DNA from: Shigella phage vB_SsoS-ISF002
Length of the DNA stretch: 50,564 bases
Reading direction: 5' to 3' (one strand)
Sequence record: MF093736
Part shown: in pieces, positions 3,727-45,925 of the stretch
How the letters are laid out: each line of letters opens with the position of its first letter
Position numbering within the stretch: position 1 is the stretch's first letter
Position numbers and translations under genes: made by a program
The notes under the pieces: generated by a model
Seen by the model: the letters and a program-made list of their open reading frames with translations, nothing else
Told to the model about the DNA's origin: nothing
The model's database searches: none

Positions 3727-4128
3727 TCATGCCACAGCCTTTAACCAGAATCCTAGATCTGACGATTTAAACTCAACCAGCTTTCCGTCAACCTCAAGCA
3801 TCATACTGTTTCTACCAGGTGAGTAATAACCTATATGCAACTCCTGATCGATCCCTATGGTACACAGCACGTTTGCGAAGTCAGGAGGCAACCAATCAGA
3901 GAAAGGTATTTTCTTAACCTGCTTCTTTCCGATCCATATGGTCTGGTAATCGTCTTCGTTAATGTTTAAGCCTGGAAGGCTTGTTGTTCTTTGCTGCTTT
4001 TCGTTCTCTCTCAATTCTCTTTCCCTCTTCACGATAAAACTCAAGTGACGGAGTTGCTGGCACTCTATGCATTTTTCTCGGCATATCTTCCATAAATGAA
4101 ATCTTGCCGTTTGAAATAATGCTAACAT
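3727..4128 (-). CDS. hypothetical protein; 5' end uncertain
   Basis: ORF overlaps the 3' end of the 3959..4231 ORF in another frame; ATG at 4128 has a poor RBS; an internal TTG with an agggaaagaga RBS is an alternative start. Confidence 0.3.
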   Translation of the reverse strand: MLALFQTARFHLWKICREKCIECQQLRHLSFIVKRERELRENEKQQRTTSLPGLNINEDDYQTIWIGKKQVKKIPFSDWLPPDFANVLCTIGIDQELHIGYYSPGRNSMMLEVDGKLVEFKSSDLGFWLKAVA

Positions 4129-36758: not shown

Positions 36759-37102
36759 TATTTACCTCTCCCAAATGAAAAATTAACACCTAAAACCTGA
36801 TTGCAAACTGATTCCATGTATCGCAACTGATATTGAGCAACCTTTGAAGGGCTTAATTCATCAGTAAATAAGTCATCAACATTGATTTCTTTTTTATGCT
36901 TGCGCTTCCATGCCTTGATGATATTTGGCAGGATTCGCTCGCTTTTCCAGGCTGCAAACTCAGCTTGATTCGTTGACACAGGAGTAAGTTGTTTTTCGAT
37001 CTGGTTTAGCAACTCGGCGGCTGCTCCTTTTATATGCAACTGGTCGCCGATCGCATCAAGGATTTCACGAGCTTGCTTCTCTGACAGGTTAATCGTAATC
37101 AT
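36758..37102 (-). CDS. hypothetical protein (114 aa)
   Basis: ORF whose start overlaps the upstream stop. Confidence 0.4.
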   Translation of the reverse strand: MITINLSEKQAREILDAIGDQLHIKGAAAELLNQIEKQLTPVSTNQAEFAAWKSERILPNIIKAWKRKHKKEINVDDLFTDELSPSKVAQYQLRYMESVCNQVLGVNFSFGRGK

Positions 37103-37308
37103 GCCTCTTCCCCCTCATCTTCGATCGGTGTAAAAAACTGAGTGTTCACTGCCGGGTTGTAATAAACCCCGTCATCATAGTCGCTTTCTTTCACTTCAAT
37201 GAAAACGTCGCAACCGTCATGCATGAAATCACCGTTATCAGTATGAACGAGTTCGAATACTTCAGAAGTTTTATTGCAAGTGAAAAACTTATCAGTTGAC
37301 ACCATCAT
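37099..37308 (-). CDS. hypothetical acidic protein (69 aa)
   Basis: ORF preceded by a box unit and the leader catcgacaacgaa. Confidence 0.45.
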   Translation of the reverse strand: MMVSTDKFFTCNKTSEVFELVHTDNGDFMHDGCDVFIEVKESDYDDGVYYNPAVNTQFFTPIEDEGEEA

Positions 37309-37364: not shown

Positions 37365-37384
37365 GTTTTAGCAATTAGTGCTAT
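37365..37384 (-). promoter_or_regulatory. conserved intergenic box
   Basis: Plus strand gttttagcaattagtgctat. Confidence 0.5.
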
Positions 37385-37953
37385 TTGTTGATGAACGTAG
37401 CGGCTATGTGCTGAGCGGTAATTTCAGGATGACCCTCAACAGAGAAGAAATCACATTCCTGATAACCGTTAACCCCGATCATATCGTCCAGGTAGATATA
37501 ATCGCGACTGTCGTTATCGAAGTTGCAACCGTTGCGATGTATGCGGCATAGCTTGACCTGGATATCGCCTTCAATCATTTGCAAGATCTCGTCTTTGAAT
37601 CCCCCGTCAGTAAATACCGAAAGTGAGTGCGACTCTTTAACCTTACTTTCCGCTCGCATACCGAAGAATCGATTTCCGAACTGCGGCTTGATGACTTCCT
37701 CGCTAATCCAGATCATAAACTGGCGCGGGCTTTTACCGTTCAGGATTGACGCTGGCTCTTCTTTGTAACGACGGTCCTCATACAAGAACATGAAATACTC
37801 GTAGTTAGTTTCACCCAAGATTGCCCGAGCAATCTCAAACATTGGTGCTTTGAAGCTGCGGAGCGCTACGTGATCGTAAGTGTCAGCCAGGATGCATCCG
37901 ATAGTGTCTTTTCCCGCTCCAGGTGCGCCGTTTAAAATGATAGCTGTTTTCAT
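37381..37953 (-). CDS. P-loop kinase, candidate polynucleotide 5'-kinase
   Basis: Walker A GAPGAGKDT at the N-terminus; paired with a HAD phosphatase gene. Confidence 0.55.
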   Translation of the reverse strand: MKTAIILNGAPGAGKDTIGCILADTYDHVALRSFKAPMFEIARAILGETNYEYFMFLYEDRRYKEEPASILNGKSPRQFMIWISEEVIKPQFGNRFFGMRAESKVKESHSLSVFTDGGFKDEILQMIEGDIQVKLCRIHRNGCNFDNDSRDYIYLDDMIGVNGYQECDFFSVEGHPEITAQHIAATFINK

Positions 37954-37954
37954 G

Positions 37955-38065
37955 TTAGTATCTCCCTAAAAATAACTTTGCCACATTGATGATAGTGTGA
38001 TTGATGATTAACAGGATGATAACCGTCAATACCGGATGTGCTGCAATAAATTCGTATAGGTTCAT
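37955..38065 (-). CDS. small hydrophobic peptide (36 aa; not in the supplied ORF track)
   Basis: MNLYEFIAAHPVLTVIILLIINHTIINVAKLFLGRY*; its ATG overlaps the phosphatase stop (ATGA). Confidence 0.3.
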   Translation of the reverse strand: MNLYEFIAAHPVLTVIILLIINHTIINVAKLFLGRY

Positions 38066-38595
38066 TCATCCACCCCGTGAGATTTTAAATGATCGTGAAC
38101 GTTATCGCCATAGTCAACTACAGCGTAAGTGGTTATTCCAAGCGAGCGGAATAATGGAATAATTTGCGGTGAGTCATCCCAGGCCGCCAGAATGTTATCA
38201 ATGCCGATCGCGCGCACCGCCTCTTCTTTCATTACTGTGTCTTTCCGGTTATCGGTGTGTGGTCGCATAATCAGGTAATCATATCGAGCGCCGTGATGCT
38301 TAAGCCACAACTCAGATGCGTAACGCACCTCATCACTTCGCCCGGTTAAAATGATCACATGATAACCAGCGGAAAACATAGAGTTCATCACATCGATCGT
38401 GCTTTGGATAGGGTTGTCAAATATTGCCGCGCGGTTAAACTCGGACCAGCTTTCAGTCAAGTGCAAATCTTTTGTCGGCAGCAAATGAAGTCTACCGGAT
38501 CCGTCACTAAGTGTCCCGTCAAAGTCAAAGATTGCGACGCGGCGCGGACCGAGAAACAGGTTGATTGTCTGGCCCCAAATGGTGATTTTATCCAT
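38062..38595 (-). CDS. HAD-family phosphatase, candidate polynucleotide 3'-phosphatase
   Basis: HAD motif I FDFDGTLSD near the N-terminus; downstream motif ILTGRSD. Confidence 0.6.
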   Translation of the reverse strand: MDKITIWGQTINLFLGPRRVAIFDFDGTLSDGSGRLHLLPTKDLHLTESWSEFNRAAIFDNPIQSTIDVMNSMFSAGYHVIILTGRSDEVRYASELWLKHHGARYDYLIMRPHTDNRKDTVMKEEAVRAIGIDNILAAWDDSPQIIPLFRSLGITTYAVVDYGDNVHDHLKSHGVDE

Positions 38596-38660
38596 GATTT
38601 ATTCCTCTGATTGGTTGCTTAACTCAACGAAGGGCATTCTAACAAATGCCCTTGAGCAAG

Positions 38661-38679
38661 TTTTAGCAATTCGTGCTAT
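38661..38679 (-). promoter_or_regulatory. conserved intergenic box
   Basis: Plus strand ttttagcaattcgtgctat. Confidence 0.5.
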
Positions 38680-39125
38680 TACCAGCATCTGATCTCGTAT
38701 TCAGCCCAATCGTCAAAATCACTTTGGCAGAATGTGCCACTATAATTTTCCATCATTTTATCGATCAGGAAGTAGCGCGACTCACCGTTACGATAGAAGT
38801 ATGAATCAGCAACGTTACGCGCCCAGCGCCCAGCCTCCTTCTTGCTCATCTTCCAGTGCTTCATTGCAATCTTCTTGAATGCACGCACGACGCGCTTGCG
38901 GATCTTAATGTGCTTGTACACCGCGTTGCATCCGTAGGCCATATATTCGTTATCGCCAAGATTCTGCATAATGTACGGATTTACTTCTTTTGACGTAATC
39001 ATCAGATCGCCATCGCCGCGACGAGCATCATAAATACCTGCTGTCATGTAGTGACCTTTGAACATACCAATGCCGTGCAGAGTGTACTCATCGTTAGGCG
39101 TTTCAATGCAAATTAAGTGTTTCAT
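38679..39125 (-). CDS. hypothetical protein (148 aa from RBS-supported ATG)
   Basis: RBS gaggaag before ATG; MKHLICIETPNDEY... Confidence 0.45.
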   Translation of the reverse strand: MKHLICIETPNDEYTLHGIGMFKGHYMTAGIYDARRGDGDLMITSKEVNPYIMQNLGDNEYMAYGCNAVYKHIKIRKRVVRAFKKIAMKHWKMSKKEAGRWARNVADSYFYRNGESRYFLIDKMMENYSGTFCQSDFDDWAEYEIRCW

Positions 39126-39180: not shown

Positions 39181-39199
39181 TTTTAGCAATTCGTGCTAT
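39181..39199 (-). promoter_or_regulatory. conserved intergenic box
   Basis: Plus strand ttttagcaattcgtgctat; contains the upstream gene's TAA. Confidence 0.5.
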
Positions 39200-39401
39200 T
39201 CGTTTTAATAGTGATGCAAAAATAATTTTTTAAGCACGTCACCACTCGCGCTGAATCGACTTGTGGGAGCCTTAAAATTTCGTGGGCCAATTGCACTGCC
39301 GACACCTCAGATTTGTAGTAGTGTGCGATTCTGGAGGTATTTGGGCGCATTCCTTCCACTGCGTCACGCGCTGCATCTTCTGCTGTCATGATAGTAGCCA
39401 T
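39183..39401 (-). CDS. hypothetical protein (72 aa)
   Basis: ORF with ATG start. Confidence 0.4.
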   Translation of the reverse strand: MATIMTAEDAARDAVEGMRPNTSRIAHYYKSEVSAVQLAHEILRLPQVDSARVVTCLKNYFCITIKTNSTNC

Positions 39402-39549: not shown

Positions 39550-40188
39550 TTACATGATGAACATCAGCGAAATCGAAGCGACCAGGAGAACAAGAGCGAT
39601 AGCTAGGCCAGACAAGTCTGCTTTCTCTTCAAACTTCATTGCTGGCTTGCGGTCAACATTAATAGGCTTGACGTTGCTAATCTTGCTGGTGTTGATCTTG
39701 CCATTGACGCGGGAGGTGCGCTTGCGCTTCTTGCCGAACGTTGCGAACTTAGTGCCTCCACTGTTCCAACGAAGACCTTCGCCATTATGCGTTACGGTAG
39801 CGATGCGGTGACGGCCCGTGTCGTCAGTAAGCGCTACAGTGTGCTTTGCGTGCTCAGTAGGAACGTCGTAGATTTTTCCAACAGTAAATTTTTTGGTGTT
39901 ATCGCTGATACATTCAAATTTCATAAATTTTACCTCTTTATTATGCAGTTGATTGATTGCTTCGATTACGTCTCTAAATTTAACACCATCCACGATTCGA
40001 TGGAAGATATATTTTGAACTACCGCAATACGGCAGGAAAATTTCCTGGTACTCGTGACGACGGATGATGTTAACGTTGCTACCGTGCTCATCCACGACAA
40101 CGAAGCTGTCGTCATTGACGTGAGCGCCTTCGTAGATTTTTCCCCACTTAAAGCCCGATCCGTTACTTGATACGCATTCAAATTTCAT
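39550..40188 (-). CDS. membrane-anchored protein with an internally duplicated N-terminal domain
   Basis: Two repeats beginning MKFECVSSNGSGFKWGKIYEG and MKFECISDNTKKFTVGKIYDV; basic linker; C-terminal helix LSGLAIALVLLVASISLMFIM. Confidence 0.5.
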   Translation of the reverse strand: MKFECVSSNGSGFKWGKIYEGAHVNDDSFVVVDEHGSNVNIIRRHEYQEIFLPYCGSSKYIFHRIVDGVKFRDVIEAINQLHNKEVKFMKFECISDNTKKFTVGKIYDVPTEHAKHTVALTDDTGRHRIATVTHNGEGLRWNSGGTKFATFGKKRKRTSRVNGKINTSKISNVKPINVDRKPAMKFEEKADLSGLAIALVLLVASISLMFIM

Positions 40189-40472
40189 GGTCTAACCTTC
40201 CTATAAGGCTTGATTGATAACATCACGTATTGCGTGAAGTCGCATTCCTGATCGTCATACCCGCGATTGATGTATGGAGTCACGTCTGTAACATCGGATA
40301 CCCTGGCGTGAACTTCCCACCCGGTAAACTCACCGCGATCGAACTCTCGTAGCTCCAAGATATCGCCAATCTGGAAGTTGCGGTCATTGATGCGGAACTC
40401 TGCCGTTTTGGTTCCGTTCATTACTCCAATGAAATGTACCGGGTTAATTTTTAACTTATGACTCTTGCTCAT
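40185..40472 (-). CDS. hypothetical protein (95 aa), possible PUA/ASCH-like fold
   Basis: Weak resemblance only; start overlaps the downstream gene. Confidence 0.35.
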   Translation of the reverse strand: MSKSHKLKINPVHFIGVMNGTKTAEFRINDRNFQIGDILELREFDRGEFTGWEVHARVSDVTDVTPYINRGYDDQECDFTQYVMLSIKPYRKVRP

Positions 40473-40535: not shown

Positions 40536-40554
40536 GTTTAGCAATTCGTGCTAT
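40536..40554 (-). promoter_or_regulatory. conserved intergenic box
   Basis: Plus strand gtttagcaattcgtgctat; contains the TAG stop of a small ORF. Confidence 0.5.
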
Positions 40555-40700
40555 CGTTTAACGCACATAGTTTTTACTTCATATCCGAACGGCTTGTTTT
40601 CTGCAATCACCTCCCGAGCTTTTTCGCATGATTGCTGACTTTCCATGTATACGTGATCCGGCCCGGTGCTCATCAAGATAATCAAGACCCATGCAGCCAT
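40551..40700 (-). CDS. hypothetical small protein (49 aa; not in the supplied ORF track)
   Basis: MAAWVLIILMSTGPDHVYMESQQSCEKAREVIAENKPFGYEVKTMCVKR*; ATG overlaps the upstream stop; its stop lies inside a box like other genes. Confidence 0.35.
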   Translation of the reverse strand: MAAWVLIILMSTGPDHVYMESQQSCEKAREVIAENKPFGYEVKTMCVKR

Positions 40701-42843: not shown

Positions 42844-42862
42844 TTTTAACAATTCGTGCTAT
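42844..42862 (-). promoter_or_regulatory. conserved intergenic box
   Basis: Plus strand ttttaacaattcgtgctat. Confidence 0.5.
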
Positions 42863-43329
42863 TTAGTGAGATACTTTACGCCACTTCCGGCAACCTCATT
42901 CCAGCCATCCTCAAAGTGTACGCTATAGCAAGTTGCAGAACGCTGGCGAACCTTCGACACAGTGCGCCACACCTTACGGCCCGAGTAACCAGTCAGTACA
43001 CGCATCCCTGGCAACAACTCACCCGACTTTCTCACCTTAATGGCAACATCTGAACCAAGCTCGAACGACTCAAGGAAAACTGGGTCAATCATATCGCACA
43101 TGCGGCGAACTTCGTTCTCGTCTGCCCATTCACAGCCATCTCTTGACTTGATAACTTCAATAAAACAAACCAATTTCTCAGTTAGTGAGTTTGAAGCATA
43201 TGTGTCTATATCAATAACCGTGCAGTGACTGTACATATGCCAATGCGATCCGGTTTTATGCTCAAACGCGAAGAATGACATTTCATCATCAAGCTCATCT
43301 TTAGCCAGAAATACGGTAATGGTTGTCAT
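42859..43329 (-). CDS. hypothetical protein (156 aa)
   Basis: ORF with ATG start. Confidence 0.45.
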   Translation of the reverse strand: MTTITVFLAKDELDDEMSFFAFEHKTGSHWHMYSHCTVIDIDTYASNSLTEKLVCFIEVIKSRDGCEWADENEVRRMCDMIDPVFLESFELGSDVAIKVRKSGELLPGMRVLTGYSGRKVWRTVSKVRQRSATCYSVHFEDGWNEVAGSGVKYLTK

Positions 43330-45217: not shown

Positions 45218-45922
45218 ATGAAATTAATCTGGTCACTATTCGACGGTTCAGGTCTTGCAGGTCATGAGCTAGCAAAGCAAGGCCATAAGGTGATGTGCTT
45301 CAACTTTGACGGAGCCGATCACGGAGATTACGCAAAGTACAACGCCAGGGTTGAGCATCATAACATTGAGTATGTGAACGTCTTTATTAATGAGAAGTTC
45401 GAACGTGATGCTATCGCGGGTGTGTATGGCAAGCCTGATTTCATCATGGCATTTCCTCCATGCACTGACCTGGCTGTTAGTGGCGCTGCTCACTTCGCAA
45501 GAAAGCGTGAGCGAGATCCGTTATTCCAGGAGAAGGCTGTTGCTACCGCCCGGATTGCTGCGAATATTGGCGACTCTCTTGGCGTGACTTACATAATTGA
45601 GAATCCGGTGAGTGTCCTGTCATCTGCCTGGAGAAAACCAAATCACTCCTTCAACCCCTGGGAGTATGGCGGCTATCTTCCTGAGAATGACGCACACCCC
45701 TGGTTCCCTATGTATATTGCGCCGCGCGATGCTTATCCGAAGAAAACTTGTCTTTGGACCTCGGACGATTTTGTCATGCCGGAGAAAAAACCTGTAAGCC
45801 TGCCTGACGGGTACTCTACGCAACACAGCAAGCTGGGCGGCAAGTCGGCAAAGACGAAGCTGATACGATCCCTGTCGCCTCGTGGATTTTTCAAAGCGAT
45901 CGCAAATAGCACTTTTTGTTAA
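45218..45922 (+). CDS. compact DNA (cytosine-5)-methyltransferase-like protein
   Basis: Motif I-like LFDGSG, catalytic PC-like FPPCTDLAVSG, ENV-like IIENPVS; start at ATG with RBS gaggaagcaaca. Confidence 0.5.
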   Translation: MKLIWSLFDGSGLAGHELAKQGHKVMCFNFDGADHGDYAKYNARVEHHNIEYVNVFINEKFERDAIAGVYGKPDFIMAFPPCTDLAVSGAAHFARKRERDPLFQEKAVATARIAANIGDSLGVTYIIENPVSVLSSAWRKPNHSFNPWEYGGYLPENDAHPWFPMYIAPRDAYPKKTCLWTSDDFVMPEKKPVSLPDGYSTQHSKLGGKSAKTKLIRSLSPRGFFKAIANSTFC

Positions 45923-45925
45923 AAC
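45906..45925 (+). promoter_or_regulatory. conserved intergenic box overlapping the 3' end of the methyltransferase gene
   Basis: atagcactttttgttaaaac; its TAA is the gene stop. Confidence 0.5.

Follow-up and report, generated by a model that had tools for sequence, protein, structure and literature searches.

Two families of enzymes are the nearest described relatives of the genes considered here. One is represented by the 3'-phosphatase domain of polynucleotide kinase-phosphatase (Pnkp), with solved structures from phage T4 (PseT; 1LTQ, 5UJ0) and from Capnocytophaga (Pnkp1; 4XRP). The other is the deoxynucleoside-monophosphate (dNMP) kinase family of T4 gp1, of which the dNMP kinase of phage T5 is a functional analogue. 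In mammalian PNKP, the phosphatase comes first and the kinase second. A pair of such genes is already known from the T1-like phages, as the published annotations of T1 and TLS read 'PNK + dNMP kinase'; the TLS products Gp09 and Gp14 were so annotated under nucleotide metabolism, and in both phages the host genome is degraded and its nucleotides are reused (PMC11447400). In the KanT1 paper, the pair is read as 'enhancing nucleotide supply' (PMC13164509).

Here, the pair was analyzed in the window, i.e., the whole stretch of 50,564 nucleotides from Shigella phage vB_SsoS-ISF002 (record MF093736), which is a Tunavirus (T1-like) genome with ~96% identity to Shigella phage ISF001. An earlier note, made from this sequence alone, had proposed that the two genes, with a small ORF between them, are a split Pnkp and a candidate module for the healing of nucleic acid ends.

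Organization and transcription of the locus

The locus consists of three ORFs, all on the minus strand and at the coordinates given in the earlier note. They encode a phosphatase of the HAD superfamily, from the Pnkp phosphatase clade (38062..38595, 177 amino acids), standing alone with no attached kinase domain; a predicted small single-pass membrane protein of 36 amino acids (37955..38065), which is lineage-restricted; and a P-loop kinase of the T4 gp1/dNMP kinase family (37381..37953, 190 amino acids), which is a homologue of T1p62, i.e., dmk in phage TLS. The start and stop codons of the small ORF had been described as overlapping on both sides, which was confirmed at one end, where its ATG overlaps the phosphatase stop codon as ATGA, but not at the other, where its TAA and the kinase ATG lie 1 base apart (37954). 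The Shine-Dalgarno sequence of the kinase gene, AGGGAG, is located within the small ORF.

Directly upstream of the phosphatase gene is a T1-type early promoter/leader cassette (38630..38680, minus strand), in which the 20-mer AATAGCACGAATTGCTAAAA at 38661-38680 is followed by a hairpin at 38630-38653 that bears an extended -10-like TGnTAGAAT (TAGAAT being 38636-38641). This 20-mer occurs in 21 copies in the window, compared to 0.02 expected, and alignment of the copies revealed a TATAGT-like -10 element at constant spacing, along with the hairpin, a conserved CATCGA(C)AACGA leader, a Shine-Dalgarno sequence and an ATG. The next copy, an exact match at 37366..37385 on the minus strand, overlaps the kinase stop codon and is followed by the -10-like GATATAGT and then by the next gene (37099..37308). 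The copy at the kinase stop codon marks the downstream limit of the unit, and there are no copies between it and the one at 38661-38680. It is to be noted that the limits of the unit were set by the repeated 20-mer, a generic promoter/terminator scan around the operon being uninformative. With promoter motifs on both sides, the phosphatase, the small ORF and the kinase form a single early transcription unit.

Family assignment of the phosphatase

Profile and structure-based searches, which the earlier note had suggested for both proteins, led to the Pnkp phosphatases for the HAD protein, as had been anticipated, but to T4 gp1 and not to Pnk for the kinase. In the HAD protein, the sequence FDFDGTLSD (residues 23-31) contains the DxDxT nucleophile motif (D24/D26/T28). 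The protein matched the Pfam family PF25109 (HAD_PNKP) with 61.3 bits, the cutoff being 27.6, over profile positions 3-141 of 143, and a profile search of the PDB retrieved Pnkp1 and T4 Pnkp as its sole relatives. The residues reported to be essential in the T4 Pnkp phosphatase, by mutagenesis in the Shuman laboratory, are D165, D167, R176, R213, D254, D277 and D278; all of them have equivalents in the alignment, which are, respectively, D24, D26, R35, R86, D119, D140 and D141. The Pfam family is also that of T4 PseT and Pnkp1. The proposed relationship of the phosphatase half to T4 Pnkp is therefore upheld, and the protein is specifically related to the 3'-phosphatase domains of T4 Pnkp and Pnkp1.

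It nonetheless differs from these two in being separate from any Pnk-type kinase and in having no ligase partner among those searched for, as detailed below. It also contains a 14-amino acid cap insertion (LLPT..ESW.EFN) that is missing from T4 and defines a HAD subfamily. The cap is the specificity-determining region, and the AF2 model assigned it low confidence (pLDDT <50, residues 32-58). Phage T5 Dmp was considered as another relative and rejected, since it has no Pfam family and its BLASTP likeness to the phosphatase is confined to DxDGT. HAD_PNKP domains similar to the present one were found fused to Pnk-type (AAA_33) kinases in two proteins (P0360 and P0364). Considering these fusions, and that the closest solved relatives are polynucleotide 3'-phosphatases, a polynucleotide substrate is quite possible for this enzyme.

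Family assignment of the kinase

The P-loop of the kinase, GAPGAGKDT, occupies residues 9-17. No Pfam or NCBIfam model, AAA_33 included, matched the protein above threshold, and PDB searches by single sequence and by profile returned P-loop matches only; structure prediction was therefore needed to place it. The best structural match of the predicted structure was T4 gp1 (1DEK), and its nearest structural neighbors in this comparison did not include polynucleotide kinases. Residues 1-187 of the kinase matched the family phrog_139 at profile positions 82-260 (E = 5.1e-47), and T4 gp1 matched it over the corresponding span (positions 83-261; E = 1.8e-65). With this score for the kinase and the 61.3 bits of the phosphatase, neither ORF is due to chance. 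Direct comparison of the kinase and gp1 by hhalign produced 81% probability (E = 1e-5, 73 columns), whereas that of the kinase profile with residues 1-157 of T4 Pnk, the sequence of which was checked against 1ly1/1ltq, aligned only the P-loop (columns 1-28).

Identity between the kinase and T4 gp1 is 12-21%, and G14, K15, D16, R77, D116, E122, G142 and D148 are invariant in the alignment that includes gp1. Motifs common to the two are the G-K-D-T of the P-loop and the aligned Arg, Asp, Glu and ND[ST] positions. In T4 Pnk, a general-base Asp (D35) and an Arg (R38), reported to be essential by mutagenesis in the Shuman laboratory, lie just past strand 2. Strand 2 of the kinase (model residues 29-32) is followed by S33-F34-K35, and the conserved Asp and Arg are absent. 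Considering the phrog_139 membership, gp1 as the best structure, the restriction of T4 Pnk likeness to the P-loop, and the absence of D35/R38 equivalents, the idea that this protein is the polynucleotide kinase half of a split Pnkp had to be abandoned; by HMM family, motifs and predicted fold, it is best described as a T4 gp1-type (d)NMP kinase and not as a Pnk homologue.

The T1-type kinase and gp1 are alike in belonging to lytic phages by which the host DNA is degraded. At 190 amino acids, the T1-type kinase lacks the ~40-residue insertion of gp1, and a Pnkp-type HAD gene usually precedes it but does not precede T4 gene 1. Among bacteria, the first genome scan for kinase relatives revealed none and the second revealed 7 loci, mostly on short or metagenome-assembled contigs and none in Pseudomonas, the genus of the experimentally supported dNMP kinase PP_1964 (P. 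putida).

The small membrane protein ORF

The small ORF, which encodes the sequence MNLYEFIAAHPVLTVIILLIINHTIINVAKLFLGRY, is a true gene on which purifying selection acts. Among 12 Tunavirus copies, 16 of the 22 variable sites fall at the third codon position and the amino acid is altered in only 3 codons (binomial p = 1.8e-4), while the start (ATG/GTG) and stop (TAA/TGA) codons are preserved in all 12. Kyte-Doolittle hydropathy (19-residue) reaches a peak of 2.22, consistent with one transmembrane helix. The ORF was found in 54 GenBank records of Tunavirus phages with 90-100% amino acid identity, and has been annotated as a CDS in some of them, e.g., bas13_0075. Searches of Pfam and PHROG assigned it to no family, and a DNA-pattern search of IMG/VR added no further contigs. 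In T1, its site is occupied by an HNH endonuclease gene, and L017 has a frameshift in its copy. The small ORF is a real gene, but it is no integral bridge of the pair, being missing, replaced or frameshifted in most relatives; it is lineage-restricted and dispensable. A role as a fusion linker, or the remnant of one, was also considered and rejected, as the linkers of the natural fusion proteins (..GPELHG..) are unrelated to it.

Conservation of the pair

Among 80 related viral loci, which are the IMG/VR matches of the kinase and nearly all lie on ~50-kb contigs, there are 74 in which the kinase gene has the phosphatase gene upstream of it and on its own strand. The two genes overlap or abut in 24 loci, with the ATGA overlap in 19, and are separated by at least one gene (274-2072 nt) in 38 of the 74. 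The pair was also found in a Kagunavirus, following an SbcD-like exonuclease gene. Moreover, three fusion proteins (P0218, P0350 and P0234) were retrieved, with the phosphatase at the N-terminus and the kinase at the C-terminus, and two divergent ones (37% identity) have a conserved linker in common. This order of domains is that of mammalian PNKP, from which the phage pair differs in that its kinase is of the gp1 type and not the Pnk type, in that the proteins of the present locus are separate, and in that the DNA-repair context is not seen. For a pair that is conserved in order, co-transcribed, often translationally coupled and, on rare occasions, naturally fused, 'module' is a fair word, and to this extent the earlier note is supported.

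Either gene is also met on its own in many groups of phages. In RB49-like phages, the same cap-insertion HAD subfamily is translationally coupled to nrdB, and these phages have an RNA ligase and an entire pseT besides, which together argue that the subfamily does not duplicate the role of Pnkp and that its own role is tied to nucleotide metabolism. The kinase gene of rV5-like phages precedes those of an NT5C-type HAD deoxynucleotidase (phrog_420), ThyA and RNR. This cluster is like the present locus in that a HAD phosphatase lies immediately next to a member of the kinase family, here within a nucleotide-metabolism cluster, but the HAD protein is of the NT5C family and the order is kinase, then HAD. 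As for relatives of the kinase that have no HAD partner, the one in a T7-like Vibrio phage comes after genes for an exonuclease and an endonuclease, and the one in a Kuravirus is followed by an exonuclease gene; the invariant residues of the kinase family are unchanged in them.

Possible roles of the pair

The role that we consider most likely, with modest confidence, is that the pair supplies deoxynucleotides by recycling host DNA into phage DNA synthesis. The setting would be that of T1-type phages, which degrade the host chromosome, reuse its nucleotides and replicate with the help of the host polymerase. As we infer for the substrates of both enzymes and for the order of the two reactions, the kinase would turn the 5'-dNMPs derived from host DNA into dNDPs, which host Ndk would then turn into dNTPs. 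The phosphatase would act in the same pool, where it probably strips 3'-phosphates from 3'-dNMP, from pdNp, or from 3'-phosphorylated DNA ends that would block exonucleases; alternatively, it may trim nucleotide monophosphates in some other way, the remainder being the substrate of the kinase. The gene of the small membrane protein would be an unrelated insertion between the two. A caveat is that a phosphatase and a kinase working on one pool could cycle futilely if they did not differ in specificity.

In another scheme, which we regard as unlikely, the two enzymes would form a substrate cycle that filters the pool. The phosphatase would then be a 5'-(d)NMP nucleotidase, like T5 Dmp or NT5C, that destroys unwanted monophosphates (e.g., rNMPs, dUMP or surplus dNMP), and the kinase would commit the wanted dNMPs to dNDP, thus shaping the dNTP pool. 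The rV5-like phages lend themselves to this reading, as their kinase is paired independently with an unrelated NT5C 5'(3')-deoxyribonucleotidase HAD beside ThyA/RNR, and so does the coupling of the HAD subfamily to nrdB in RB49-like phages. What speaks against it is that the Pnkp phosphatases were the only PDB relatives of the HAD protein by sequence profile, that resemblance to T5 Dmp ends at the DxDGT motif, and that a 5'-nucleotidase and a dNMP kinase, when fused, look like a futile combination unless they have non-overlapping specificities. The two genes may also be functionally independent neighbors, adjacent only because the early region is compact and its gene order has been inherited, and the occurrence of each alone in many phage groups would agree with this, as would the genes found between them in 38 of 74 loci, the site being a hot spot for insertions like those of the small ORF and the HNH endonuclease. 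Such independence is nonetheless improbable in our view, given the recurrence of the pair outside Drexlerviridae, in the Kagunavirus, the overlapping or abutting genes in 24 loci (ATGA in 19), and the fusions from at least two divergent lineages with a conserved linker.

There is a small chance that one molecule is the substrate first of the Pnkp-clade phosphatase and then of the gp1-type kinase, which would account for the translational coupling and the occasional fusion. In one version, 3'-phosphorylated deoxynucleotides would be salvaged by an undescribed route, in which pdNp or dNp yields pdN, from which ppdN is then made. In the other, a 'Pnkp' would have arisen by convergence, its NMP-kinase-family domain being re-tooled as a 5'-OH polynucleotide kinase, with the domain order of mammalian PNKP and a different kinase ancestry. 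The idea of the earlier note may be recast in similar terms, as a non-orthologous end-healing module in which the phosphatase would clear 3'-phosphates or 2',3'-cyclic phosphates of broken RNA or DNA and a gp1-type kinase would be recruited for the 5'-OH ends, i.e., a split and sometimes fused analogue of T4 Pnkp, serving repair or counter-defence. The specific Pnkp relationship of the phosphatase with every catalytic residue kept, the phosphatase-then-kinase order of the fusions, the tight synteny and translational coupling, and the AAA_33 fusions of related domains, by which HAD_PNKP normally comes with a kinase partner, are all in line with it. We nonetheless find it quite improbable, as the evidence from the kinase points elsewhere: its likeness to T4 Pnk is limited to the P-loop; the GKD of that P-loop is shared with gp1 and with phosphomevalonate kinase, two enzymes that phosphorylate a phosphate and not a hydroxyl; S-F-K takes the place of the Pnk D-x-x-R past strand 2; and its HAD-less relatives, with identical active-site residues, reside in DNA/nucleotide-metabolism clusters. 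Furthermore, no RNA or DNA ligase was found in the phage, either in the annotation of Bas13, a close and carefully annotated relative, or when the window was searched with an RnlA-type ligase (tblastn; best E 0.3), a search that is sensitive only to recognizable Rnl1-like ligases. Healed ends are also not known to be substrates for the host RtcB. With no ligase partner found, and with RB49-like phages possessing this HAD subfamily on top of pseT and an RNA ligase, the proposal of a T4-like end-healing module is not supported.

Implications for T1-like phages

Why a Pnkp-clade phosphatase should be so strictly paired, and in rare cases fused, with an enzyme of the NMP kinase family is not explained in the searchable literature. 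If the two do act in sequence on one substrate, it would mean a new activity, if a small one, in salvage or end processing, although this is speculative. The main yield of the analysis is a correction of annotation, as the gene widely named 'polynucleotide kinase' or '3'-phosphatase, 5'-polynucleotide kinase' in the T1 family encodes the phosphatase domain only, and its neighbor, often listed as 'hypothetical' or 'P-loop NTPase', would be better named a putative gp1-type dNMP kinase on the basis of its sequence and model. The enzymes by which T1-type phages recycle the host chromosome have not been identified (PMC11447400), and the operon described here is a reasonable candidate for a part of that pathway.

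Organization of the three-gene locus

The three consecutive ORFs of the earlier note were recovered in the ORF list and the sequence exactly where it had placed them, all on the minus strand: a HAD-type phosphatase (38062-38595, 177 amino acids, FDFDGTLSD at residues 23-31), a small ORF (37955-38065, 36 amino acids), and a P-loop kinase (37381-37953, 190 amino acids, GAPGAGKDT at residues 9-17). The small ORF is indeed strongly hydrophobic, its Kyte-Doolittle score over 19 residues reaching 2.22. The codon overlaps described for it were correct at one end only, as its ATG overlaps the HAD stop codon (ATGA), but one nucleotide intervenes between its TAA and the kinase ATG. The window amounts to approximately one entire phage genome (~50.5 kb); the region around these genes is 96.5% identical in Shigella phage vB_SflS-ISF001 and 92-94% identical in many other Tunavirus (T1-like, Drexlerviridae) genomes. 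A 95-residue ORF situated three genes before the HAD in this early region (40185-40472, minus strand) carries the name 'RNA-binding protein' in the RefSeq entry for ISF001.

A 20-mer, TTTTAGCAATTNGTGCTATT, which reads AATAGCAC-N5-TTG[CT]TAAAA in gene orientation, is present in 21 copies across the window (0.02 expected), each of them upstream of a gene (for example, at 37366-37385, 38661-38680, 39181-39200, 40536-40555, 42844-42863 and 45905-45924). Each is followed at a fixed distance (~22 nt) by an extended -10-like TGnTATAGT located in a hairpin, and then by a conserved CATCGA(C)AACGA leader, a Shine-Dalgarno sequence and ATG; the whole arrangement resembles a phage-specific early promoter/leader cassette. 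Two exact copies flank the HAD-small ORF-kinase operon and none is found inside it; the three genes therefore make up a single early transcription unit. The annotators of phage SA12KD called these hairpins terminators.

The phosphatase is a Pnkp relative and the kinase is not

The earlier note had proposed a split version of the T4 polynucleotide kinase-phosphatase (Pnkp), and the phosphatase half of this proposal holds at the family level, because the protein matches Pfam HAD_PNKP (PF25109; 61.3 bits, cutoff 27.6), has only Pnkp relatives of solved structure, and conserves the catalytic residues. When a profile of 30 homologues was compared to the PDB at E <= 0.01, only three distinct sequences were matched, namely Pnkp1 of the Capnocytophaga Pnkp1-Rnl-Hen1 RNA-repair complex (4e-15) and two T4 Pnkp constructs; the match to phrog_415 was also strong (2e-66). 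The DxDxT motif is retained, and D165, D167, R176, R213, D254, D277 and D278 of T4 Pnkp, which we take to be its essential phosphatase residues, align with D24, D26, R35, R86, D119, D140 and D141 of the HAD. Unlike that of T4 PseT, the cap region of the T1-type HAD carries 14 inserted residues (consensus HRLHLLPTxxLxxxESWxEFN). In four close relatives (loci L003, L006, L013 and L015, ~3811-3889) and in bas13_0074 (L098:47060-47671), a 78-nt insertion lengthens the HAD by 26 residues, VCNHEPSEPLPPFGEKICIKCKELLK, the Cys/His pattern of which resembles a small zinc-binding motif.

The kinase, in contrast, is not the missing half of such a split enzyme. It passed the threshold of no Pfam or NCBIfam model, and PDB searches by sequence returned matches confined to the P-loop. 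It did match phrog_139 ('deoxynucleoside monophosphate kinase'; 5e-47, profile positions 82-260), as did gp1, the deoxynucleoside monophosphate kinase of the T4 genome (2e-65, positions 83-261). The AF2 model, built with 33 homologues, was very confident (pLDDT 95), and its top Foldseek TM-score (0.68) was to gp1 itself (PDB 1DEK); no polynucleotide kinase appeared among its top 50 Foldseek matches. In a separate structure comparison T4 Pnkp was not among the 60 best hits, although it was present in the structure set searched. The kinase profile aligned with gp1 over 73 columns (E = 1e-5) but with the T4 Pnk kinase domain only over the 28-column P-loop. G14, K15, D16, R77, D116, E122, G142 and D148 were invariant in a joint alignment that included T4 gp1. 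The G-K-D P-loop is common to the kinase, gp1 and phosphomevalonate kinase, and the latter two phosphorylate a phosphate group. Moreover, the kinase conserves S-F-K after strand 2, where T4 Pnk has the D-x-x-R that it uses for 5'-OH activation. Based on the profile, fold and motif evidence, therefore, the kinase belongs to the gp1 family, every test run agreeing, and (d)NMP kinase activity is predicted with good confidence.

The HAD and kinase form a recurrent module

The HAD and the kinase do constitute a module, as evidenced by synteny, overlaps, recurrence in Kagunavirus, and fusions. Among 80 IMG/VR viral loci encoding a kinase relative, nearly all on the ~50-kb contigs typical of the family, the HAD was upstream of the kinase on the same strand in 74. 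The two genes overlapped or abutted in 24 of these, mostly by a 4-nt ATGA, and were 50-108 nt apart in 12, while the remaining 38 contained 274-2072 nt of other sequence in the interval. In a Kagunavirus, a member of another subfamily, the same pair, again overlapping, lies downstream of an SbcD-like exonuclease gene.

Kinase relatives numbered 4971 in an exhaustive profile search, and two of the 150 listed were HAD_PNKP-kinase fusions. Further search brought the fusions to three protein clusters with HAD_PNKP-linker-kinase architecture: P0218 (403 aa), P0350 (413 aa) and P0234 (461 aa). These fusions are real, since P0218 and P0234 share only 37% identity and yet conserve the linker (..GPELHG..), and P0218 recurs on three phage contigs from separate samples. 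Fusion genes are located at L099:8001-9212, on a 60.8-kb phage contig, and at L101:498-1883; the neighbors of the former include RdgC, an Rv2179c-like exonuclease, a PAPS-reductase-like gene, Dam methylase and a primase-polymerase.

The small ORF is a genuine but optional gene

The small ORF, found in 54 GenBank phages, is a genuine gene. Across 12 Tunavirus copies, 16 of the 22 variable sites are third codon positions and the amino acid is altered in only three codons (p = 1.8e-4), while the start (ATG/GTG) and stop (TAA/TGA) vary but are never lost. Where the HAD is extended, the start overlaps the new HAD stop, being GTG in three of the four loci and ATG in L015. It is nonetheless not a fixed component of the pair: many relatives have zero gap between HAD and kinase, and in phage T1 (L004:3515-4000; also L007 and L010) a 483-nt HNH-type homing endonuclease insert replaces the 108-nt small-ORF region. 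The junction is an insertion hot spot. In a more distant relative (L017:3890-3958; kinase 56% identical), a 1-nt insertion truncates the small-ORF homolog to 22 residues by frameshift; this copy is a pseudogene, unless the sequence is in error. The same interval in L047 (3702-4001) is an apparent interleaved mosaic of small-ORF and HNH-endonuclease fragments, which could have arisen by recombination or through misassembly of mixed phages.

Existing annotation

The trio has 90-99% identical counterparts in dozens of published phages, in which the HAD is labeled 'polynucleotide kinase', '3'-phosphatase, 5'-polynucleotide kinase' or 'putative morphogenetic protein', the kinase 'hypothetical protein similar to T1p62' or 'putative P-loop NTPase', and the small ORF, if annotated, 'hypothetical protein' (bas13_0075 of BASEL phage LeonhardEuler). 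Existing annotations, some of them curated, already describe the pair as PNK (or phosphatase) and dNMP kinase. To this the present work adds that the 'polynucleotide kinase' label over-annotates a phosphatase-only protein, that the standalone HAD defines a distinct cap-insertion subfamily also found coupled to nrdB, that rare fusions of the HAD with a gp1-type kinase exist, and that the 36-residue ORF, though a genuine membrane-protein gene, is dispensable; a phage specialist would find none of these additions very surprising.

Likely role in the deoxynucleotide pool

The pair could still be an end-healing enzyme that arose convergently on a gp1-type kinase, which we consider unlikely. The only solved relatives of the HAD work on polynucleotide ends, a kinase partner is normal for HAD_PNKP domains, AAA_33 (Pnk-type) kinases are fused to some relatives of the fusion proteins' HAD, and fusion itself suggests a common substrate for both activities. 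Against this stand the gp1 ancestry of the kinase, which lacks Pnk homology beyond the P-loop, and the contexts of both gene families, which favor the deoxynucleotide pool over nucleic-acid end repair. HAD-less kinase relatives, which retain the same invariant residues, are found downstream of exonuclease and endonuclease genes in a T7-like Vibrio phage and upstream of an exonuclease gene in a Kuravirus. In rV5-like phages (L084:2992-5378), the gp1-type kinase is followed by a HAD of a different family (NT5C 5'(3')-deoxyribonucleotidase), thymidylate synthase and ribonucleotide reductase, an independent kinase and HAD pairing. RB49-like T-even phages have a cap-insertion HAD in translational coupling with nrdB; in PHB13 (L103:2838-4474) this HAD has 158 residues and the coupling is through ATGA. 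The standalone cap-insertion subfamily is, moreover, no substitute for Pnkp, because the RB49-like T-even phages that carry it also have a complete pseT and RNA ligase a few kilobases away; in the window phage, no recognizable ligase was found by tblastn of the window with an RnlA-type ligase or in the annotation of a close relative.

T1-type phages break down the host chromosome and recycle its nucleotides, and a re-annotation of phage TLS placed the HAD and kinase homologs under nucleotide metabolism (PMC11447400); the KanT1 paper likewise reads the pair as 'enhancing nucleotide supply' (PMC13164509). Considering the gene contexts, the lack of a recognizable ligase and this nucleotide reuse, a role in the deoxynucleotide pool is therefore favored. 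The kinase would convert dNMPs released by host DNA breakdown to dNDPs, and the phosphatase would act in the same pool, its substrate being the less certain part: most plausibly, it may strip 3'-phosphates off breakdown products or DNA ends, or trim monophosphates in some other way.
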